Of a stretch of DNA of 64,000 nucleotides, positions 9,326-61,552 are shown one piece after another (within the stretch, counting starts at the first letter, position 1; the number at the start of each line of letters is the position of its first letter). The stretch is from positions 15,653-79,652 of the forward strand of contig CAYPFA010000002.1 in the NCBI GenBank assembly GCA_964410025.1. Direction: 5' to 3'. Made by a program: the position numbers and the translations under genes. Source of the DNA: Candidatus Woesearchaeota archaeon. GTDB taxonomy: Archaea; Nanobdellota; Nanobdellia; Pacearchaeales; GW2011-AR1. Under the pieces are notes generated by a model that was not told where the DNA came from, searched no databases, and saw only the letters and a program-made list of their open reading frames with translations.

Positions 9326-10108
9326 TTATATCGGTTGCACATCAATCCAAGCAACCTTCATTGTAAAAACCTGATTTGAATTCTTACTTGTTGGTTGTAT
9401 TTTCGGGCTATATGCCTCAGCCCACTCTACACCCGGAGCCCACATATTAAGATGTAAATGCATTGGACCAGAAGGCACATTAACTTTTTCTCTTCTAACT
9501 ACATTTCCATCTACGTACCAAATAACTTTATCCGGAAACCATTTAATCTCATATGTATGGAAATCATTTATTGTTCCTGAAGAGAAATTAACGAACTTCG
9601 GATGCCCTACGCCCAATGGTTCATTATCATAAATATTTGTATTAACTCCATTAGGCGAATTAGTCAAAAGCTCAAAATCTATTTCATCATGAAGTGTATT
9701 GCTTCCGTTTTTTAAATCATACAAAAAAATTCCACCAACAATTCCTGGCTTAGTTGCAATCATTCTCGCACGAACTTTTATATCCAAACCTGTTTTTATT
9801 GAAAAACTTTTATCACTAACTAAATCCGTACCATAAAAAGAAAAACCAGTTGGATTATAAGATTGCAATGTAATTAGCGCATTACTATTTTGAGAACTAG
9901 GAAGTAAAGAACTTTGCGAACATCTAAATTGCGTTCGACCAAGAAATGTTCCATCATTAGGAGAAACCCAAGTGGGAATATGCCAAATGTCTGAACTCGC
10001 AACATTTCCATTAAAATCGTCATAAAGTCTAACAGCTGCGCTCGCCATAGACGAAAAAAATATCATAGAAAAAATCAACAACACAGCAAATATTTTTTTG
10101 GTTTCCAT
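9326..10108 (-). CDS. secreted glycoside hydrolase family 16 (beta-glucanase/laminarinase-like)
   Basis: Signal peptide METKKIFAVLLIFSMIFFSSMASA; GH16 catalytic signature DEIDFELL (E-x-D-x-E). Confidence 0.8.
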   Translation of the reverse strand: METKKIFAVLLIFSMIFFSSMASAAVRLYDDFNGNVASSDIWHIPTWVSPNDGTFLGRTQFRCSQSSLLPSSQNSNALITLQSYNPTGFSFYGTDLVSDKSFSIKTGLDIKVRARMIATKPGIVGGIFLYDLKNGSNTLHDEIDFELLTNSPNGVNTNIYDNEPLGVGHPKFVNFSSGTINDFHTYEIKWFPDKVIWYVDGNVVRREKVNVPSGPMHLHLNMWAPGVEWAEAYSPKIQPTSKNSNQVFTMKVAWIDVQPI

Positions 10109-10212
10109 TTTAATAAATTATAATTCGGATTAACGCTTTATAATAATTTTCAATAGTTAGAATATATCATATAAATTATAAGAAAAATAAAGAATAGAAA
10201 AATACTTCCGCA

Positions 10213-10309
10213 TTTCATAACTGCGAGCGAGCAGCGAGCTTATAATATAAACAAATTTTTCATGAAAAAATTTGACAATTTCCTAAAGACTCTAGTTGCC
10301 TATTATAAA
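10213..10309 (+). repeat. bipartite-hairpin intergenic element, copy 1 (hairpin 1 degenerate)
   Basis: TTTCATAACTGCGAGCGAGCAGCGAGC, then hairpin 2 CAAATTTTT/AAAAATTTG, then ACAATT...CCTATTATAAA. The 3' end overlaps the stop of the minus gene at 10303. Confidence 0.7.
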
Positions 10310-10563
10310 GAACTATCTACCACTGTCCATCCACCCAATTCACTCTTCTCTAATTCTTCAGCTAACTTTAAAGCAAGCCCGTTAGAAGATTCCAATCTCT
10401 TCGGATTATCCAAAGCATCAGGGAAACAATAAGTAATATACCCTGGAAATAAACTTACATAAAAAGTTACATTATATTTATCATCTCTAACAATTAAGCT
10501 ATCGTCTCCAGCAGAAATATTTTTTAAACCAATATTTTTCGCAACTCCGAAAATATCATTCAC
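10303..10563 (-). CDS. hypothetical protein (86 aa)
   Basis: Track ORF with no recognisable motif. Confidence 0.45.
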   Translation of the reverse strand: MNDIFGVAKNIGLKNISAGDDSLIVRDDKYNVTFYVSLFPGYITYCFPDALDNPKRLESSNGLALKLAEELEKSELGGWTVVDSSL

Positions 10564-10616
10564 TCTTCTATTGGTTTCAACAACCCATTGATCATAACTT
10601 ATTTTTCTTATTATTT

Positions 10617-11675
10617 TTAGTCAACTACTACGTCGTGTAAACCATCTGTATCAACTGAGAAAACAGTTTCATTATCTGGCAAGTTTGGTGAATCTATTAA
10701 TTTTGCTACTCTTGTATCCTTCTTACTTCTTCTCAAATACATTCTGTAAGTTGAAGCATGAGCAACAATATTTCCACCAACAGCCTTTGTCGGATCTCCA
10801 AACATTTGAGCCGGGTCAGCCATTACCTGATTTGTAACATAAACAGCCAAATTATAACTTTCTGCAATTTTCATTAAATTATGTAAATATTTATTTAACT
10901 TCTGCTGTCTATCTGCTAACATTCCCCTTCCGGCAAACTCTGCTCTAAAATGCGCAGTTAAAGAATCGATAACAATTAACTTTATTGGCTCGCCATTCTT
11001 AATAAGCTCTGCAATTTTATCCATCAATAAAATCTGATGATCTGAATTAAATGCTCTAGCAACTAAAATATTTTTCAAAACCTTATCGGAATTTGCATTA
11101 TATCTTGCAGCGAACTGTCTAATTCTTTCCGGTCTAAATGTTCCTTCAGTATCGATAAAAACTGCCTTACCATTTAATCCGCCCTGTTCAATTGGCAACT
11201 GAACATTCACTGTCAAAGACAACGCCAACTGAGTCTTCCCTGAACCAAAAGCTCCGAAAGCCTCAGTAATGGACTTTGTCTCTAACCCTTTTCCACCCAG
11301 AAGATTATCTAAATTCTTACTACCTGTAGTAATATTACCTACCTCTTTTCTTTTTTCTGCGAATTCTAAACCATCCGAAAATCCTAAATTCATCATCGAA
11401 CGAGCAGCTTGAATTGCCTTTCTCGCAACAGCCTCTCCCATTCCAGCCATCTCAGCCAATTCAGAAGGACCCATTACGGCCAATCCCATTAAATCATAAA
11501 TTCCGGCAGCTTCAAGTTTCGCAGCAGCACCAGGACCAATACCAGGAACATCTGTTAATTTTTTGCTTTCAACTTCATCTTCAGAATCTTCCTTCTTGGC
11601 TTTCTTGGCTTTCTTATCTTTCTGCTCATCAGAGCTGACACCCGCGTGTGCCTCATCATCTTTTTTCTCAACCAT
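10617..11675 (-). CDS. radA: DNA repair and recombination protein RadA
   Basis: HhH LTDVPGIGPGAAAKLEAAGI; Walker A GAFGSGKTQ; RecA/Rad51 core; K/E/D-rich N-terminal extension. Confidence 0.95.
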   Translation of the reverse strand: MVEKKDDEAHAGVSSDEQKDKKAKKAKKEDSEDEVESKKLTDVPGIGPGAAAKLEAAGIYDLMGLAVMGPSELAEMAGMGEAVARKAIQAARSMMNLGFSDGLEFAEKRKEVGNITTGSKNLDNLLGGKGLETKSITEAFGAFGSGKTQLALSLTVNVQLPIEQGGLNGKAVFIDTEGTFRPERIRQFAARYNANSDKVLKNILVARAFNSDHQILLMDKIAELIKNGEPIKLIVIDSLTAHFRAEFAGRGMLADRQQKLNKYLHNLMKIAESYNLAVYVTNQVMADPAQMFGDPTKAVGGNIVAHASTYRMYLRRSKKDTRVAKLIDSPNLPDNETVFSVDTDGLHDVVVD

Positions 11676-47222: not shown

Positions 47223-48443
47223 TTACAATCCTAACGATTCAACTAAAATTGCCTCTACTTTCTCCAAAATATTTGAAGGAATAGAAAGCTTAACTTCCCT
47301 TGTTCTTCCGTGCCTCCCTTTTGAGATAACTCTCGCATTTATTAGCCCAAGCATATCTATTTCACCAATAATATCTGAAACTCTCCTTTGGGTAAGAAAT
47401 TCTATTTTTATCTTATTACAAACATCTTGATAATAATTATAAATATCTCCTGTAAAAAAATTATTTGATTCATTTCCGTCTTTTCCTTCCTTCTTTGTTA
47501 ATTGTAATATAGAATATAAAACCACTTGAAATTGTGTCGGTTCGGTTTCAACTATGTCTAATATTTTATCTTTTTCCATTTTCTGATTAGCCTGATCAAT
47601 ATAAATCTCATCTATTCTTAATTTTCCATCTCTTTCAGCAAGTTCACCTGCTATCCTAAGTAAATCTAAAGCTCTTCTTGCATCACCATGTTCTCTAGCT
47701 GCAAAAGCTGCACATTTTGAAATAACGGCCTCATCGACAGCATTTTCTTTAAATGCCTGCTTACACCTCTCATTTAAAATATCTTTTAACTGTACTGCAT
47801 TATATGGTGGAAATATCACTTCTTCTTCTCCAAGAGAACTTTTTACACGCGGATCTATATTTTCTAAAAAAGTAACATCATTAGAAATCCCTATAATTGA
47901 TATTTGGGCCTTACTTAACTCAGAATTTAACCTCGTAAGAGAATATAAAAAACTATCATCTATTTTTTTAACAGCTTGATCAATTTCATCAAATATAATA
48001 ACAACTAATTGTTTTTTAGAATCTATTAAATCAATAAATATTGAATAAACCTTATCGGTTGGAAGACCTGTTGCTGGAACACTTCCTCCAAGTTCTGCAA
48101 TTAATGCTGCTAAAATCCTATATTCCGTATCGGCAATTTTTCTTAATTTACAATTAATATATTCTATTCTTATATCCACACCTATTTCTTTAGCTCTTTT
48201 AAGCAACTCTTCCCTAACATATTGAACTGAAAGTGTTTTTCCAGTACCTGTTTTACCATAAACAAAAAGATTACTAGTTCTTTCTCCTCTTAAAATAGGA
48301 GCCATCATTGAAGCTACTTGCTCAATTTGTTTATCTCTATGGGGAATAGATTGAGGTGTATAATTTGTTTGTAAAACACTCTTATCTTTAAATAAAGAAT
48401 TTTTAATAGCTGAATCAAATATATGTGAAATTTGTGTTCCCAT
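47223..48443 (-). CDS. cdc6: Orc1/Cdc6 replication initiator
   Basis: Walker A GKTGTGKT; Walker B IIFDEID; C-terminal winged-helix-like region. Confidence 0.9.
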   Translation of the reverse strand: MGTQISHIFDSAIKNSLFKDKSVLQTNYTPQSIPHRDKQIEQVASMMAPILRGERTSNLFVYGKTGTGKTLSVQYVREELLKRAKEIGVDIRIEYINCKLRKIADTEYRILAALIAELGGSVPATGLPTDKVYSIFIDLIDSKKQLVVIIFDEIDQAVKKIDDSFLYSLTRLNSELSKAQISIIGISNDVTFLENIDPRVKSSLGEEEVIFPPYNAVQLKDILNERCKQAFKENAVDEAVISKCAAFAAREHGDARRALDLLRIAGELAERDGKLRIDEIYIDQANQKMEKDKILDIVETEPTQFQVVLYSILQLTKKEGKDGNESNNFFTGDIYNYYQDVCNKIKIEFLTQRRVSDIIGEIDMLGLINARVISKGRHGRTREVKLSIPSNILEKVEAILVESLGL

Positions 48444-48934
48444 TTTTTAAACCTCTAAAACAAGAAATGAATAAAGACTATTTAAATATTCATATATCGG
48501 AAAACATATATCTATCACCTCTATTTCCTTTAGAAAAATTATTTTAAATTATCTTTATTTAATTAATTAATAATTATTTTTACCGATGATAATCATTATT
48601 AAACACAAACACTCCCTCACACCTCTATTTCCTTTCCAGAAGAAATAGAGTTAAATAAAAAAATTTATTATACTATATACTATAATGTATATAATATAAT
48701 ATATATAATATAATATATAAAAGCTTATAAATAAAAAATAAACATTTTTGATTTTCTTTTTTGCTTTATAAATCTTATTCCATTTGAAATTAAGGGGTGA
48801 GTGTTTATAAAAAATACATCAAATATGTATTTTAAGTTGACTTTTTTAGAGAAAATTTTAATTAAATTATAAAAATAAGATATATTATACACGACTATAC
48901 AAAGGTTTATAAATAAATTTACAATATTTTTATC
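48444..48934. other. candidate replication origin (oriC): repeated ORB-like boxes flanking an AT-only unwinding region
   Basis: CACCTCTATTTCCTTT at 48516-48531 and 48620-48635; dyad CTCTATTTC/GAAATAGAG at 48623-48650 containing TTCCAGAAGAAA; AAACACTC at 48607 with inverted GAGTGTTT at about 48799; (TA)-rich tract about 48650-48790. Lies directly upstream of orc1/cdc6. Confidence 0.6.
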
Positions 48935-53466: not shown

Positions 53467-53778
53467 ATGCCAAGAATATCAAAAGAAAAACAAGAAAAAA
53501 TTCAAGAGCAAGTTTTATTTTTTCTCTATTCAATTTTTCCAAAACAAGTTTTTACGGCAGATATAGCAAAAGAAATTGCAAGAGATGAGGAATTTATTAA
53601 GGTTTTGATGTTAGAATTAGAAAAAAATAGCCTAGTTGTTAAGGTAACAAAGAATTCTGAAGGTGTTAATTATGAACGAAGACTCCGTTGGAGAATTTCA
53701 AATAATGCCTATGAAATTTATAATCAACATCAAAATAAATCTTCTCAATTGGAAATACAAGAAAAACTTGAAGGATAA
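53467..53778 (+). CDS. small winged-helix-like DNA-binding protein
   Basis: FTADIAKEIARDEEFIKVLMLELEKNSLVVKV... has an HTH-plus-wing pattern. Confidence 0.5.
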   Translation: MPRISKEKQEKIQEQVLFFLYSIFPKQVFTADIAKEIARDEEFIKVLMLELEKNSLVVKVTKNSEGVNYERRLRWRISNNAYEIYNQHQNKSSQLEIQEKLEG

Positions 53779-53845
53779 AAGAATAACTCTGAAGTATATC
53801 TTAGAGAATAAATAACATTAAAAAGAAACAGGGACTTAATTTTTT

Positions 53846-54520
53846 ATGGATCCAATTAAAGAAGCTTTTCAGAAAATAAAAGAAGAAATGTTGGAAATTA
53901 GAAAAGAAATTTCCGCTTTAAAACAAGAAATTTCTTTAAAGCCAAACTTATCAGACTTAGGTGGTTCTTCGGCAAATCCGTCAATTATTCCAACACAAAC
54001 CCATCATCCAACAGACACTCCCGCACAAACTCCGGCAGTTCCACAGGAAATAGGGGGGTTAAAACAATCAAGTTTCATAATCTCCACAGGAAATAGGGGG
54101 GGTCCAACAAACACATCCACAGACAGTCAAACAAACCAACAAACCAGCAATTTCAACATTTCTCCTCGAGAAACACTATTAGATAGGTCCATAAACCTTC
54201 ACGAAACTCTCTCTAGTGTAGATAATATTAAGCGAGAATTAAGGCTTAAGTTTAAGAGATTAACTACTCAAGAAATGCTCGTTTTTTCAACCCTCTATAG
54301 TTTAGAATCTCAGGGTTTTCAGGAAATTACCTATAAAATCCTTGCAAACAATCTTAATCTCAGCGAATCTTCAATTAGAGATTATATATCTAAAATCTCA
54401 GCCAAAGGAATACCCGTTTCCAAGACTAGGTTGAATAATAAACTTATAGTATTGAATATCTCTCAAGATCTGCAAAAAATAGCTTCCCTAGCCACCATAA
54501 TGCGTTTGAGAGAGCTTTAA
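53846..54520 (+). CDS. coiled-coil / P,T,Q-rich linker / C-terminal HTH protein
   Basis: N-terminal heptads; C-terminal LTTQEMLVFSTLYSLESQGFQEITYKILANNLNLSESSIRDYISKI. Contains the duplicated poly-G 18-mer. Confidence 0.6.
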   Translation: MDPIKEAFQKIKEEMLEIRKEISALKQEISLKPNLSDLGGSSANPSIIPTQTHHPTDTPAQTPAVPQEIGGLKQSSFIISTGNRGGPTNTSTDSQTNQQTSNFNISPRETLLDRSINLHETLSSVDNIKRELRLKFKRLTTQEMLVFSTLYSLESQGFQEITYKILANNLNLSESSIRDYISKISAKGIPVSKTRLNNKLIVLNISQDLQKIASLATIMRLREL

Positions 54521-54819
54521 TTTTATAAGTAAATATCATGTTTTTACGCTTTAAAATATAAGTCATTCGGCTAAACGAATAGTTATTACAATCCTCTCTT
54601 TTTGACCTTGAATCCAACATATTCAAGCCAGTCAATTATTTTTTCTTTGATTTTTAACGTTGTTTTTGAGTTTTATCAGTAGATTTTTAATCTAAACTCA
54701 CTTTTGCGCCAAAAATAATTTTTTTAAGTTATTATAAAAACTCTCACTTAAATCCTTTGTATTGTTATATTCACAAACTCTCCTTTTTTTTCTCACTTTT
54801 CCAGTAAATTTTATGCTTT

Positions 54820-55422
54820 TCATTGTTCTACCTGTTTTCTTCTTTGTAGTTTAACTCTCACTTTTCCATTTTTGAGCATAATTTGCTTCATTTCTTCAGG
54901 AATATACAATCTTTTCTTGCCATTTGCCTCTCTAGCCTCCATTATTAATCCTTCACTCTTCTGCCTTATGGTATTAATCTGTCCCCTAACGGTGCTTTTA
55001 TCTTTTCCTAATAAAACAGCTAAATCTTCATAGCTTAGTTTTTGATCAGAGTTTGCAAGCGCCCAAATTACAGCTCGCTCCATAAGTGATAAATTGTCTA
55101 AAATAGTTGTTTGAACAGCCGTTTGCACGCCTTCTTGAACACTTACAACACTTGTTTGTTTATTAGAATTTGCCTGCGGTTGTTTGGACAGCTTAGAACC
55201 AAACAGTGAAATAAAATTTTTCATCTCTTCCATTTCACTCTGTACTTCAAAAAGTTGTTTCTTTACATCATCTATTTCAGTGTCTTGGACATGTTCTTTA
55301 GCGTCGAAATGCTTTATCCATTGACTAACTTTACCAAAATCTTGTTTCACAGAATCAAAAGACTTTTGTATTTCAAGCCTCATTTGTTCATTCTCATCTC
55401 TTTTTTTAAACCAACCAAACAT
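54820..55422 (-). CDS. coiled-coil / Q,T-rich linker / C-terminal HTH protein (same architecture as 53846-54520)
   Basis: LSLMERAVIWALANSDQKLSYEDLAVLLGKDKSTVRGQINTIRQK. Confidence 0.6.
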   Translation of the reverse strand: MFGWFKKRDENEQMRLEIQKSFDSVKQDFGKVSQWIKHFDAKEHVQDTEIDDVKKQLFEVQSEMEEMKNFISLFGSKLSKQPQANSNKQTSVVSVQEGVQTAVQTTILDNLSLMERAVIWALANSDQKLSYEDLAVLLGKDKSTVRGQINTIRQKSEGLIMEAREANGKKRLYIPEEMKQIMLKNGKVRVKLQRRKQVEQ

Positions 55423-55803
55423 CTTAATATTGTTTAAACAACCATCTTTATAAACCTTTCGTTTTTTTATCGTTTTTACATCTAAAATAGGTTAAAAATA
55501 GACAAATTTAGCTGTTGTTTAAAACAAAAACATTATATTTTATACTCGATAAAACACATTAAATCTTGTTTATAACTAAACAACTGATAAACATCAATTT
55601 AAACAGTCAATTCTGTCAAACAACACCCATATAATACATAAAAATGAGTCAAAAAAGCACATATTTTATAAACAGCTGTTTGGAGTTGTTTGCTTGTTTG
55701 TTAAACAATGAAGATCTATTAACTAACACCTGTTTAAACAGGTGTTTATCGTCGGTAAATTTTAATTAAAAACATTTATAAACAACAACCAACTGAATAA
55801 AAT
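55423..55803. promoter_or_regulatory. palindrome-rich control region (TGTTTAAACA-type sites)
   Basis: TGTTTAAACA at 55431-55440; 20-nt perfect palindrome ACACCTGTTTAAACAGGTGT at 55726-55745; AAACAGCTGTTT at 55670-55681; further TGTTTA/TAAACA half-sites throughout. Confidence 0.6.
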
Positions 55804-56106
55804 ATGGGTGTGATGCGTAATATTTCAATATCTTTAGGTTGTTCTTTGGCTTATTTTTTCTCATCTTTTTTCGTAAACATAATTCCATGTCAAATGGCGC
55901 CAAATGTTCCAAATCCGATTTATTCATGGGCACTTTGCAATATAAATCCAGACCAAATTTCATCTTTCGGGATACAGAAGCTTTACTTTGGCATAACCAC
56001 AAAGTTAGCTGAAACATACTTTATTTCGTTAGTTTTGATTTTCGCAATATTTATGATAATTTTATCTCTATTTTTTAGAAAATCAAAAAAAATAAAAGAT
56101 GAGTGA
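55804..56106 (+). CDS. doubtful hypothetical ORF with C-terminal TM
   Basis: Track ORF. A competing minus-strand ORF (55766-56017) covers the same DNA. Confidence 0.25.
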   Translation: MGVMRNISISLGCSLAYFFSSFFVNIIPCQMAPNVPNPIYSWALCNINPDQISSFGIQKLYFGITTKLAETYFISLVLIFAIFMIILSLFFRKSKKIKDE

Positions 56107-56117
56107 AAGGAGGTTTA

Positions 56118-56327
56118 ATGGCAAAAATACAGGAAAAAAGCAAGTTTAATTTTTCAGCTTTCCTTGCGTGGATGGTTGGAATCTTAGTATCTTTAGCAGT
56201 AGGTTCCGGAATGATCGATAAGATACTTACAATTCCATTTGTTCCAAATATAATAACAGCTATCGCAGGTTGGATTGTAGTAATCGGCGCAATAATTTCA
56301 GTAATCGCTGCAATTTTTAACAGATAA
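56118..56327 (+). CDS. small two-TM membrane protein (69 aa)
   Basis: GGAGGT lies 5 nt upstream of ATG 56118. MAKIQEKSKFNFSAFLAWMVGILVSLAVG.... Confidence 0.6.
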   Translation: MAKIQEKSKFNFSAFLAWMVGILVSLAVGSGMIDKILTIPFVPNIITAIAGWIVVIGAIISVIAAIFNR

Positions 56328-56539
56328 ACAATCAATCATTTTATTTTTTATTTTTATTTTTAAGTAAAAAGAATTATAGTTTGCATCCAGTGTATTTTTA
56401 GCCGCAGGCTGTTAATTAAGTCGTATGCAAAGGTAACCTTAGTGCATAAAACCGCGGTAACTGAAAAATCTGTGAGCGCGAAGGCAAAATATAGCATAAT
56501 CACATAAATATTTATAAACAAAACTCATAATAAAATCAA

Positions 56540-56935
56540 ATGAACAAAATAACCATTTCAGGATTTGCCCAAGGCGGAGGATCTTTTTATTTAGAATATA
56601 AAGATAGGCAAAACAGTGAAATCATAAGAGTATTTAGGTTGGAAGATACAGAATCATCGCCAGTTTGGTGTTCAGTCGATACAAAATTTTCAAACGGACA
56701 AAGAGAACATTTTTCTGAAGAAATGCCATTCCCAAGAAGAAATCCATTCTTACCAAGAGCACTTTATCTTCAACCTCTCGAATATCTTGCGGCAAGAGAA
56801 TATGCAGAAACAATTGTTAAAACCAATCCTGGAGAATTTAAAGTTGATGACGAAATAGAGAAAAGGTTTGAATATGATATAAAGAAATCATTGCTTTCTG
56901 AGTTAAATGGGATAATTAAACAAAAAAAGAATTAA
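56540..56935 (+). CDS. hypothetical protein, gene 1 of the four-gene operon
   Basis: Track ORF; no motif recognised. Confidence 0.6.
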   Translation: MNKITISGFAQGGGSFYLEYKDRQNSEIIRVFRLEDTESSPVWCSVDTKFSNGQREHFSEEMPFPRRNPFLPRALYLQPLEYLAAREYAETIVKTNPGEFKVDDEIEKRFEYDIKKSLLSELNGIIKQKKN

Positions 56936-56936
56936 C

Positions 56937-57281
56937 ATGACAAAACCAAAACCATCACTTGAAGTTGAGAAAAGATCAGACGGATATCTTTTTACAGAAG
57001 TTAGACCAACCTATGAAGTTTATCATGGAAGAGTTCACTGTTTATCAAATAATATTCAATATGCAATAGTTTTTGACCAAGAAATTCCTTCTGCCGGAAT
57101 GGGCCCACCATTTACTAAGCCACAGCTCTTAAAGGCTGGAGACTATCCAATGATAGGTAGACATTATTTTTTAGAACATTTTATGGAAATCGAAGTAATA
57201 AGTCAGGCTAAAAAACTAGCAAAAGAAAAAGGATTAGTATTAAAGTTGGCACAAAGCCAACCTAAGTGCACAAAAAAATAA
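56937..57281 (+). CDS. hypothetical protein, gene 2 of the four-gene operon
   Basis: 1-nt spacer to gene 1. Ends ...LAQSQPKCTKK. Confidence 0.6.
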   Translation: MTKPKPSLEVEKRSDGYLFTEVRPTYEVYHGRVHCLSNNIQYAIVFDQEIPSAGMGPPFTKPQLLKAGDYPMIGRHYFLEHFMEIEVISQAKKLAKEKGLVLKLAQSQPKCTKK

Positions 57282-57282
57282 A

Positions 57283-57786
57283 ATGGAACCCAAAAAACTA
57301 ATCTTCGGACCACCATATCCATCAATCTTATTTACGGGAGAAAAGACAAAAACCTTTAGGGTTACTGGTGGCAATAGATATCAAATTGGCGATTTGGTTT
57401 CACTTTGCACGCCAGAAAAAGAAGAATTTGCTCAAGCTGCAATATTTAGCAAAACCCGAAAAAGATTTTATGACTTAACCACATCAGACTGGAAGGGCCA
57501 CGAAACATTCGCATCAGAACGAGAAATGTATATAATTTACTCCAATTGGCAAGGATTTCCGGTCGGCGGAGCAACACCGCTCGATATTATTGAATACAAA
57601 GACTTTAGAATCACAAATCCAGATTTAATCAGTCGTCTTAAACAAGGCATTTACGCTACAGATGATACCAAAGGTAACCTTGGTGCAAAGATTTTAGATT
57701 TCCAAAAAGCCTTGGCAGAAAAAGAACAAAAACAAAGGCAAGAAGATTATAAAAAAATCGCACATATAGCAGATCATCTAAAATAA
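57283..57786 (+). CDS. ASCH (PUA-like) domain protein, gene 3 of the four-gene operon
   Basis: ILFTGEKTKTFRV resembles the ASCH GxKxxExR block. Size and beta-rich pattern fit. Confidence 0.5.
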   Translation: MEPKKLIFGPPYPSILFTGEKTKTFRVTGGNRYQIGDLVSLCTPEKEEFAQAAIFSKTRKRFYDLTTSDWKGHETFASEREMYIIYSNWQGFPVGGATPLDIIEYKDFRITNPDLISRLKQGIYATDDTKGNLGAKILDFQKALAEKEQKQRQEDYKKIAHIADHLK

Positions 57787-57787
57787 A

Positions 57788-58126
57788 ATGGTAGAACAAA
57801 AAATTTATTTCTGTAAATATTTAGGTTATAATATCACTGGCATTGCCGCACGAAATTGTAACTATTCCAATCTAGATGGCTACACCTGCAGGCATTCTGG
57901 CGAAGATTGTGTTGCAAAAGAGGGATTAATCGCATTTCAGCAAAAATTAGAACAAAGTCAACCTAAGTGCATAGATTCAATAATTGATGAAACTTTGCGC
58001 CAATTAGAGTGGTTACATGAAATAGGATCAAATCTTCCCAAATCTGTCATTCACACAGCGCAGGGAGGAATTGCTATAAAAATTCCAAATTATACTGCAC
58101 CAGATGATTGGCGCCCTAAAAAATAG
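57788..58126 (+). CDS. Cys-rich hypothetical protein, gene 4 of the four-gene operon
   Basis: Six Cys in the first 42 aa. Contains ...LEQSQPKCIDS. Confidence 0.6.
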   Translation: MVEQKIYFCKYLGYNITGIAARNCNYSNLDGYTCRHSGEDCVAKEGLIAFQQKLEQSQPKCIDSIIDETLRQLEWLHEIGSNLPKSVIHTAQGGIAIKIPNYTAPDDWRPKK

Positions 58127-58152: not shown

Positions 58153-58178
58153 GTTCGCACAAGATACATTGTGCGAAC
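58153..58178 (+). terminator. 9-bp perfect hairpin downstream of the operon
   Basis: GTTCGCACA-AGATACAT-TGTGCGAAC, 27 nt after the stop at 58126. Confidence 0.35.
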
Positions 58179-58437: not shown

Positions 58438-58460
58438 AATTAAACCAGGCTTTTTAGGCT

Positions 58461-58520
58461 TTTAAACCTTTGGCCGCAGGCCGTTAGATCAAATTTTTAA
58501 ACCTTTGGCCGCAGGCCGTT
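58461..58520. repeat. 25-nt perfect direct repeat x2 (period 35) containing GCCGCAGGCCGTT
   Basis: TTTAAACCTTTGGCCGCAGGCCGTT at 58461-58485 and 58496-58520. A related GCCGCAGGCTGTT is at 56401-56413. Confidence 0.9.
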
Positions 58521-60218: not shown

Positions 60219-60722
60219 ATGAAAAAAGTGGTTGTTAGTGATTTAATGCAAAAAAATTATTCTTATTTTTTATCAGAACCAGAGGGTAAAAATTTTGATA
60301 CAGAATTTAAACCCGAATTAACGCCAAAAAAAATGCTTGAACTTGGGATTTTCGGTGGCAAATATATGACAGATTGCAAAAAAGAATTTCCGAAGGATTG
60401 GTTTGTAAAAGCAAAATTTTGTCACGAATTTCATGACGCAAACTTAAATTTTTTTAAAGTAAATGCATCGCAACCTCTTTCCGTTTGGCGAAAAAAAAGT
60501 TGGATTTTTTCAGAAGATCCACGTGGTTGGTTTCAATGGTATTGTAGATATTTTTTAGGTCGAAGGATTCCAGAGATGGATTTAATTCAAATAAAAAGAT
60601 GGAAAGCAATCAAACGACACATTTCACAGATTAAAAAAAATTGTTCAAAAGGAGATTTAAATTGTCGTCCCAAACAACGTCAAGCAGTTCTTCATTGGGC
60701 ATACGATTCGAGGAAACTATGA
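60219..60722 (+). CDS. conserved-looking hypothetical protein (167 aa)
   Basis: GIFGGKYM and GWFQWYCRYFLGRR blocks. Its stop overlaps the xerA-like ATG (ATGA). Confidence 0.6.
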   Translation: MKKVVVSDLMQKNYSYFLSEPEGKNFDTEFKPELTPKKMLELGIFGGKYMTDCKKEFPKDWFVKAKFCHEFHDANLNFFKVNASQPLSVWRKKSWIFSEDPRGWFQWYCRYFLGRRIPEMDLIQIKRWKAIKRHISQIKKNCSKGDLNCRPKQRQAVLHWAYDSRKL

Positions 60723-61552
60723 CGCCGGAAGAATTTCTTAAAAAACTTGAAATAGAATTAAAGATTTCCAAAAATTCCCCATATACTCTTAGAAATTATA
60801 TTGATGCAAACAAACAGCTGTTTGAACACTCAAACAAACAACCAGAAGAAATGAGTATTGACAATGTCAAGCATTTTATGGCAGAAAAACTTTCAGATAA
60901 GTCTTCTTCATCAATTATTCTTTTTTTGGCAGCACTCAAATATGCATACACCAATATTCTCAAAACCGACGTGACTCTTGGCATTAAACGTCCAAGAAAA
61001 GAAAAAAGAATTCCCACTGTTTTAACAAAAGAAGAAGTAAAAAAGCTGTTTGCTATTTTAATAAACAACAAGTCACGTCTAATGGTTTCTCTGCTTTATG
61101 CCTGTGGTTTTCGAGTTTCCGAACTAACAAAACTAAAAGTTAATGATTTAAATTTTGATGAAATGTCTGGTTCTGTTAAGCAGGCTAAGGGCAAAAAAGA
61201 TAGAGGGTTTAATATTCCAGCTTTTCTACTAGAGGATCTAAAATCTCAAGTTGATGAACAAAAAAAATTAAACCAAGAATTTCTTTTCTCAAATCCAACA
61301 ACTGGAGCTAGAATGAGCTCGGCAAATTTAGAAAAAATAGTTAGAAAGGCAGCCAAAAGAGCGGGAATTCAAAAAGACGTTCACTGTCATACACTAAGGC
61401 ATTCTTTTGCGACACATTTGCTCGAAAACAACGTGGACATAAGAAAAATACAAGAACTTTTGGGCCACGCAGATTTAAGCACAACGCAAATTTATACACA
61501 TGTTTCAAGGGAAGAATTGAAAAAAATAAAATCTCCTATTGATTTGCTTTAA
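60719..61552 (+). CDS. xerA: tyrosine recombinase, XerA/XerC/D-like
   Basis: MTPEEFLKKLE... start preferred over the track start 60641. R (GFRVSEL), HTLRHSFATHLL, LGHADLSTTQIYTHV. Confidence 0.85.
   Translation: MTPEEFLKKLEIELKISKNSPYTLRNYIDANKQLFEHSNKQPEEMSIDNVKHFMAEKLSDKSSSSIILFLAALKYAYTNILKTDVTLGIKRPRKEKRIPTVLTKEEVKKLFAILINNKSRLMVSLLYACGFRVSELTKLKVNDLNFDEMSGSVKQAKGKKDRGFNIPAFLLEDLKSQVDEQKKLNQEFLFSNPTTGARMSSANLEKIVRKAAKRAGIQKDVHCHTLRHSFATHLLENNVDIRKIQELLGHADLSTTQIYTHVSREELKKIKSPIDLL

Follow-up and report, generated by a model that had tools for sequence, protein, structure and literature searches.

One of the closest described counterparts of the DNA element treated here is the stoperator of cluster A mycobacteriophages (L5 gp71 / Bxb1 gp69), an asymmetric site that is present in many copies, lies near gene boundaries and keeps one orientation with respect to transcription. 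One stoperator copy is the true operator at a promoter, and a helix-turn-helix (HTH) repressor recognises the site (PMC3029335, PMC9283540). Our element is a motif of 19 nt, found four times in and just before an array of four small open reading frames (ORFs) in a 64,000-nt stretch of DNA, called the window below, from a Candidatus Woesearchaeota archaeon (contig CAYPFA010000002.1, positions 15,653 to 79,652 of the forward strand). It is like the stoperator in its asymmetry, its several copies, its placement near gene boundaries and its single orientation. However, stoperators are 13 bp long and spread genome-wide in the phage, whereas the motif of these DPANN archaea measures 19-24 bp, is confined to one locus beside a dif-like site, and usually lies inside ORFs, read in frame. 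The motif is constrained at the DNA level; its copies have a single orientation, occur at one locus per genome, are linked to a regulator gene and to dif/xerA, and stand among shuffled protein modules. We tentatively favour the reading that it is an oriented binding site, of the operator or stoperator kind, recognised by a winged HTH (wHTH) protein whose gene lies at the locus; recombination between copies would then be a by-product.

Other described systems tie short repeats to recombination. The layout of the R64 shufflon is the one used for comparison here. Shufflon sfx sites (IncI plasmids, Rci) are 19-bp repeats in coding sequence that mark the junction between an N-part and an exchangeable C-segment, with a distal recombinase gene (PMC5430464). 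The motif, too, is a 19-bp repeat at such a junction within coding sequence, with a recombinase gene at the distal end of its array. However, sfx sites are inverted and their inversions are visible within one clone, whereas all copies of the motif are direct and each DPANN module has its own start codon. Eleven contigs (11), assembled from the metagenomes of several lakes, carry the array in identical form. In four public runs the contigs contained no rearranged, deletion or excision forms and only cross-matches from other organisms, with the limit that rare forms would be missed in assembled contigs. Hence, rearrangement is not frequent, and with neither inverted repeats nor clonal heterogeneity the motif is not an sfx-type site.

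Integron arrays, including those of archaea (attI/attC, IntI; Ghaly et al. 2022, PMC9668308), have one-way small orphan genes, a repeated site, an Xer-related recombinase and variable content in common with our locus. Their attC sites are imperfect inverted repeats of variable sequence that fold into hairpins, whereas the motif is a conserved linear sequence without a fold. Lacking a fold, inverted copies and conserved positions outside -3 to +20, it is not an attC site. The tyrosine recombinase of the window is not an integron integrase either, since it scores below the integron-integrase cut-off (215.5 vs 265) and as XerA, and its gene lies downstream of the array in the same orientation, whereas the integrase gene of an integron is divergent from the array.

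Staphylococcal cassette chromosome (SCC) composite islands carry the ccrA/ccrB serine recombinases and direct repeats of 15-18 bp at the 3' end of rlmH. They resemble our locus in that short direct repeats, read in the frame of a host gene, part tandem blocks of genes at a single place in the chromosome, and in the serine recombinase pair, which is present in some copies. The DPANN blocks differ in being 0.2-0.8 kb long and gene parts rather than whole elements, and their recombinase pair is not flanked by repeats on both sides and is absent from most arrays. Finally, the DPANN array abuts a dif-like site near xerA, which recalls Xer/dif and the elements that exploit it (integrative mobile elements exploiting Xer, IMEX, and pdif modules). 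The xerA operon of haloarchaea likewise has a dif-like site upstream (PMC11840125). As to the motif, it is not a Xer dif site: it lacks a second arm and an 11-6-11 inverted repeat, and its likeness to the local dif arm is limited to the inner part of that arm, which its last 6 nt and the next two bases resemble (GCACAA).

On re-reading the window we confirmed the four copies of the original prediction, all on the plus strand and with the coordinates and sequences it had given (Table 1). Fifteen of the 19 positions are invariant, and the assignment of two copies to one reading frame, of one copy to another frame and of the first copy to intergenic DNA also held. No further copy with up to three mismatches exists on either strand of the window, and 100 dinucleotide-preserving shuffles of the window gave 0 matches to the degenerate 19-mer. 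Copies 2 and 4 share a longer similarity of 29 nt (repeat family D3). Successive copies are 824, 417 and 284 nt apart, and this irregular spacing, together with intervals that are protein-coding rather than short non-coding spacers, excludes a CRISPR or other regular repeat array. The ORFs follow each other closely, each junction consisting of a stop codon, one or two bases and an ATG (e.g. TAAAATG). Searches of Pfam, NCBIfam, PHROGs and PADLOC assigned none of the four to a family, except for a weak ASCH match of ORF3 (57283-57786).

Table 1. Features at and around the motif array; positions are counted from the first nucleotide of the window
Feature	Position	Strand	Remarks
HTH gene, cluster 3	53467-53778	+	conserved; syntenic with array in most loci
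HTH gene, cluster 1	53846-54520	+	conserved; syntenic with array in most loci
Cluster-0 regulator gene	54820-55422	-	~205 aa; divergent from array
Divergent control region	55423-55803		dense TGTTTAAACA / AAACAGCTGTTT palindromic boxes upstream of 54820-55422
Box AGCCGCAGGCTGTTAATT	56395-56413	+	ends 19 nt before copy 1; repeat family D2, related to palindromic boxes before first copies elsewhere
Motif copy 1, CAAAGGTAACCTTAGTGCA	56428-56446	+	non-coding leader; 93 nt 5' of ORF1 ATG (56540)
TATA-like box TTTATAAA	56511-56518	+	21 nt before ORF1 ATG; putative promoter element
Array of four abutting small ORFs	56540-58126	+	56540-56935, 56937-57281, 57283-57786, 57788-58126
Motif copy 2, CAAAGCCAACCTAAGTGCA	57252-57270	+	QSQPKC in ORF2, 3 codons before stop; 12 nt 5' of ORF3 ATG
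Motif copy 3, CAAAGGTAACCTTGGTGCA	57669-57687	+	KGNLGA in ORF3, between ASCH-like domain and 32-aa tail; ORF4 ATG 100 nt on
Motif copy 4, CAAAGTCAACCTAAGTGCA	57953-57971	+	QSQPKC in ORF4, between Cys-rich domain and 51-aa tail; dif-like site 181 nt on
dif-like site GTTCGCACAA-gataca-TTGTGCGAAC	58153-58178		perfect 10-6-10 inverted repeat; closes array
Left-arm-only dif half-site GTTCGTACAA	60203-60212	+	overlaps start of ORF 60219-60722 (167 aa) preceding xerA
xerA	60641-61552	+	NF040815 XerA_Arch, 221.2 bits vs cut-off 220

The distribution of the motif was surveyed in one genome per prokaryotic species, with a loose pattern first and then with the tighter pattern CAAAGNNAACCTAAGTGCA. The tight pattern was found in 60 stretches, 46 of them in Woese-, Pace- and Nanoarchaeota-type genomes with one locus each, and is almost exclusive to DPANN. 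Matches to the loose 19-mer were mostly isolated and single, in unrelated bacteria. In many bacteria this 19-mer coincides with enolase codons (DGT-NK-NLGANA / NKGNLGANA; e.g. L006, L008, L015 and L016 among L001-L120), and these matches are a codon-level coincidence unrelated to the archaeal element. With scattered singles in bacteria and one locus per DPANN genome, the motif is not common throughout genomes; nor is it absent from orthologous arrays, as it recurs in those of other genomes. The host of the window, with genes for Cdc6/Orc1, Lhr, archaeal ribosomal proteins and XerA, is itself a DPANN-type archaeon from lake metagenomes.

With up to three mismatches allowed, 122 copies were counted in 46 loci, 2-5 per locus and 200-550 nt apart; 120 of them share the strand of the array genes. 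In a logo (107 copies), conservation spans -3 to +20, TAA-CAAAGCTAACCTAAGTGCA-(C/A)A, with nothing outside this span, and the core AACCTAAGTGCA is conserved at 91-100% per position. The logo also reveals two direct 10-mers, C[AT]AAGnnnAC and CTAAGTGCAC, one helical turn apart, of which the motif is made. Viral contigs of IMG/VR contained isolated single copies and no motif arrays; together with the family searches of the array proteins described above, this argues against a phage or virus origin. Neither strand of the motif was found in the searchable literature. The kind of element (operator, stoperator, recombination repeat) is already known. New, as far as that literature shows, are this motif, its reach through Woese-, Pace- and Nanoarchaeota in the genomes sampled, its translation in two frames and its place between a regulator and dif/xerA.

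A function at the level of nucleic acid rather than protein homology, as originally claimed, is strongly supported by the recurrence of the same 19-24 nt in ~46 DPANN genomes, either in non-coding DNA or in two frames. About half of the copies are non-coding, and the remainder are read in one of two frames. The frame tracks the variable pair, with CC, TC or CA giving QSQPKC and CT giving KANLSA, and the consensus has TAA codons in the two remaining frames. The frame can switch between homologues: the ASCH-like ORF3 of the window reads KGNLGA where L147_6739 reads QSQPKC at the same place. Where five loci have a C-terminal tail in common, their six motif codons match in 60 of 60 codon pairs that encode the same residue, against 120 of 200 for the 32 conserved tail codons that follow. 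Tail codons thus vary synonymously and motif codons do not, which indicates that the tail is under protein-level selection and the motif under additional nucleotide-level selection. Reading in two frames or none, combined with the lack of synonymous change, places the constraint in the DNA.

Within the arrays, the motif lies at the junction of N-terminal domains and short C-terminal tails, and both parts assort independently among genomes. For example, locus L089 is arranged as Y-m-tailC..X-m-tailB (m being the motif) and L151 as Y-m-tailB, the N-domain module B6 is joined to three different tails, and tail B stands behind four different partners. In L279, a homologue of the Cys-rich module of ORF4 is flanked by two in-frame copies within one ORF, and a near-identical junction of the copy-2 type precedes a serine recombinase gene. 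Between L277 and the window, XerA has 94% identity and the regulator 70%, yet only one distant homologue (27%) of the four array ORFs was found. Module boundaries also occur at the junction of a tail with the next ORF, and the variant GTGAA travels with the upstream module, so that the motif is one seam among several. Sharp DNA-level homology breakpoints at the motif were not resolved; pairwise identities computed stretch by stretch were too noisy in this AT-rich DNA to strengthen the evidence from the proteins.

On the other side of the first copy lies the divergent regulator gene, which we call cluster 0 after our ORF clustering. Its product is predicted to have a long N-terminal helix, a disordered linker and a confident C-terminal MarR-like winged helix, whose recognition helix KSTIRGQINTIRQK is nearly invariant. 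The family comprises 1542 homologue clusters and is annotated in some sources as a predicted transcriptional regulator. In the ORF clustering, the wHTH genes were syntenic in 34-40 loci, and the array was consistently on one side of the cluster-0 gene. An independent test used metagenome loci fetched by cluster-0 homology alone, 27 of which had at least 1.1 kb on the relevant side. The motif was present in 19 of these 27, with 37 copies on the array strand vs 1 on the opposite strand, and none was found on the opposite side of the cluster-0 gene in 64 kb of these loci.

The control region between regulator and array carries palindromic boxes that are probably a second type of operator. These boxes are kept in the compact loci L240, L247, L251, L267 and L249, directly before the first motif copy; there, the first copy is ~200 nt from the start codon of the regulator and 10-20 nt past three to five boxes (AAACAGCTGTTTAAA). 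In the window, the boxes of the control region and the single box close to copy 1 are separated by two inserted genes for small predicted membrane proteins. These two genes (55804-56327; 100 and 74 aa) have 67-80% identity in L277 and are absent from the compact loci. First copies are often near-palindromic (CTAAGnTAACCTTAG, CTAAGnTAACCTTAGTGCA), and some have an inverted partial copy ~12 nt downstream. The near-palindrome AAGGTAACCTT, which the original prediction had pointed out in copies 1 and 3, thus proved meaningful, since first copies elsewhere and a virus-like contig have the fully palindromic form CTAAGGTNACCTTAG (also CTAAGGTGACCTTAG).

In the non-coding heads of other loci, a box aaatccTTAAAAA resembling a B recognition element (BRE) and TATA box stands ~21-25 nt ahead of the ATG, and the motif a further 50-70 nt ahead of the box. 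Leader copies elsewhere precede the first array gene at a distance similar to that of copy 1. This spacing of the TATA-like box suggests that the array heads give leaderless transcripts. A tandem 26-nt repeat TTTTAAACCTTTGGCCGCAGGCCGTT (58460-58520, two copies, 35 nt apart) lies just past the psd stop codon, and a related sequence at 56388-56413 precedes copy 1.

According to the reading we favour, the motif would be a double-stranded DNA recognition site, kept in a single orientation along a small, fast-evolving operon, and its binder would be one of the conserved winged-helix proteins encoded at 53467-55422. The first copy, in the divergent control region, would act as an operator. Internal copies near the 3' ends of genes, mostly 46-128 nt before the next start, would be further operators or polar roadblocks. 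The identical 19-24 nt at the gene boundaries may double as homology anchors, and recombination at these anchors would have reshuffled N-terminal domains and C-terminal tails between genomes, which would explain the module shuffling. We favour a binding site because the element is linear and built of two 10-mers, has palindromic relatives in control regions, is linked to wHTH genes and is repeated along transcription at gene ends. As with known operators of this type, one asymmetric and oriented sequence occurs in several copies, a regulator gene stands at the locus, and the first copy lies in its divergent control region. Moreover, the lack of dyad symmetry and of any enrichment of dif arms leaves the motif without what a classical recombinase core needs. 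Among the mechanisms first proposed, a binding site and a recombination site are thus both still viable, but the binder is likely to be encoded beside the array, by the wHTH genes, rather than in the cassette as had been suggested.

Several observations weigh against such a binding site. At least 12 contiguous, near-invariant bases (AACCTAAGTGCA, at the conservation given above) across orders are unusual for a transcription-factor site, and the common internal form deviates from the palindrome in a fixed, not random, manner. No co-variation was seen between motif variants and the cluster-0 recognition helix, because this helix is nearly invariant. The distance from an internal copy to the next ATG has its mode at ~95-100 nt and ranges from 1 to >130 nt, and such variation means that the motif is not a fixed-position promoter element. 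Finally, of the ~40 loci with enough sequence, ~30 have a recombinase gene (xerA or a serine pair) behind the array and in its orientation, and genes turn over fast, both of which a dedicated recombination site would directly explain. A look for RNA runs with this sequence found none.

That the motif is such a dedicated site-specific recombination (cassette/att) site, at which XerA or the serine recombinase pair would insert, delete or swap modules in an analogue of the integron, shufflon or SCC beside dif, is unlikely in our estimate, yet it is the alternative with the most in its favour. It would account for the extreme conservation of the motif, for its position exactly between independently assorting N-domains and tails, as in L089, L151, module B6 and tail B, and for the Cys-rich module of L279 between two in-frame copies. 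The array abuts dif, and its content is almost wholly different between relatives with 94%-identical XerA. The recombinase genes add to this: where enough sequence is available, the same-orientation gene often begins 130-350 nt past the last copy. It is xerA in most loci; in ~11 loci a serine recombinase gene pair lies 130-340 nt past the last copy instead, with no dif seen nearby. In L279, a serine recombinase pair is encoded at 9666-10974. In loci fetched by serine-recombinase homology alone, the motif stands immediately ahead of the recombinase gene or within its start (L282, L283). Another such locus is L284 (BPJI01000003.1, 3865-3921), a contig with virus-like genes that was binned as Parcubacteria but has archaeal-type TATA boxes and leaderless spacing. 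There, two copies of perfectly palindromic form, CTAAGGT[GC]ACCTTAGTGCA, 38 nt from each other, follow a gene ending in an HTH and precede a TATA box and, by 55-93 nt, the ATG of a small serine recombinase gene; probably the binning of L284 is wrong or the element crosses lineages. An element of ~45 nt, TAAGGTTAT...TAAGGGAACCCTTA, with a short inverted repeat around a central AA, is conserved upstream of serine recombinase operons (L279 9380-9425, L282, L283) and may be the serine recombinase's own site.

On the other hand, a recombination site would be expected to show features that the motif lacks, namely dyad symmetry or a second arm and the potential to form a hairpin. Sequences like dif arms are not enriched in the arrays (0.72/kb inside vs 0.66/kb outside), which also rejects insertion scars left by XerA. 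Boundaries at the junctions of tails with next ORFs do not coincide with the motif, and the movement of the GTGAA variant with the upstream module would put any exchange point beside, not inside, the conserved core. No catalytic serine recombinase is encoded near the window array, and the 11 contigs and the contigs of the four runs show no structural variants. In the loci examined, no copies occur beyond the recombinase genes, so these genes are not flanked like an integrated element. The more specific proposal of a gene-cassette system of Woese-, Pace- and Nanoarchaeota beside dif, in which a translated, linear and unstructured direct repeat of 19-24 nt would be the exchange point on which XerA or the serine pair acts, is somewhat more doubtful still.

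The motif might also be a polar architectural element in the service of dif, either a one-sided roadblock for replication forks or SMC or a tether, comparable to Ter/Tus, RTP, matS/MatP or XDS and bound by the coiled-coil wHTH protein, but this we consider improbable. The motif is asymmetric (~23 bp) and oriented, and all copies point toward dif, which lies 35-400 nt beyond the last of them; Ter sites surround the terminus in both orientations. The first copy lies in the control region of the candidate binder, as TerB lies in that of tus. The cluster-0 protein, as modelled, combines a long helix with a winged helix, and its first residues (MFGWFKK...) look like those of a membrane-targeting helix. 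An architectural role also gains from Thermococcus, where the surroundings of dif set chromosome-domain boundaries via a DNA-binding protein (PMC11840125). However, the copies are found on one side of dif only, and their occurrence once per gene would be left unexplained. The GC skew does not flip at the site, and a probable oriC beside cdc6 is only ~9.5 kb away, so that the array/dif region is not obviously a terminus.

A role in RNA is more improbable still, be it in processing, in recognition by an RNA-binding protein, or in translational coupling or recoding along a polycistronic transcript. In its favour, the copies keep to one strand, the sense strand of the array genes, and to the neighbourhood of ORF ends, ahead of the abutting stop-start junctions (TAAAATG); the consensus has stop codons in two of three frames, and ORF3 weakly matches ASCH, a PUA-like domain. 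Most arrays, however, have no ASCH genes, cleavage at the motif would sever ORFs from their conserved tails, and the first copy is upstream of the TATA box of the first gene and hence probably outside its transcript. Folding of 76-78 copies in three window placements did not exceed that of shuffles (z-scores ~0), and Rfam gave no match at the gathering threshold or at E up to 1; these results exclude a structured RNA or an attC-like hairpin. The loci contain no antisense or complementary copy of the motif even with G:U pairs allowed, which speaks against the target of a nearby antisense or guide RNA, and the small-RNA target of the original prediction finds no support here. Chance, or the by-product of a shared peptide, has a negligible probability: copies 2 and 4 do encode the same hexapeptide inside their 29-nt similarity, but shuffles yield no match, other copies are non-coding or read in a second frame, the consensus has TAA codons in two frames and the motif codons lack synonymous variation.

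The dif-like site that closes the array is probably the chromosomal XerA target (dif) of the lineage. It is the sole 0-mismatch match to the dif-like pattern in the 64 kb, and in ~32 loci the pattern NTTCG[CT]A[CT]AA-N6-TT[GA]T[GA]CGAAN is found ~35-400 nt past the last copy. The site resembles dif of Escherichia coli, GGTGCGCATAA-TGTATA-TTATGTTAAAT. It also has the architecture reported for archaeal dif (PMC2958812). The half-site with a left arm only, which recurs in L137, L142, L162, L277 and L250/L251, may serve XerA in autoregulation or be a hybrid scar. The window has three genes between the full site and the half-site, namely psd and those for a zinc-finger protein and a PPIase. Beside cdc6/orc1 (47223-48443, minus strand) there is an AT-rich gap of 490 nt (48444-48934), in which the repeat CACCTCTATTTCCTTT occurs twice (48511, 48615) and once more inverted (48633-48650). 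The slope of the GC skew changes at this gap, which is the possible or probable oriC named above, ~9.5 kb from the dif-like site.

DPANN archaea are mostly uncultivated, and their cis-regulatory and recombination signals are almost unknown. Here, a near-invariant element of 19-24 nt is defined together with a conserved address between regulator and dif/xerA, candidate binders and a hypervariable set of small orphan genes, and the probable dif site of the lineage comes as a by-product. The element thus offers a testable handle on gene control or gene exchange in DPANN. As a recombination site, it would stand for a cassette system of a new kind; as an operator, it would be an unusually conserved and partly coding-embedded site that also shapes protein modularity.

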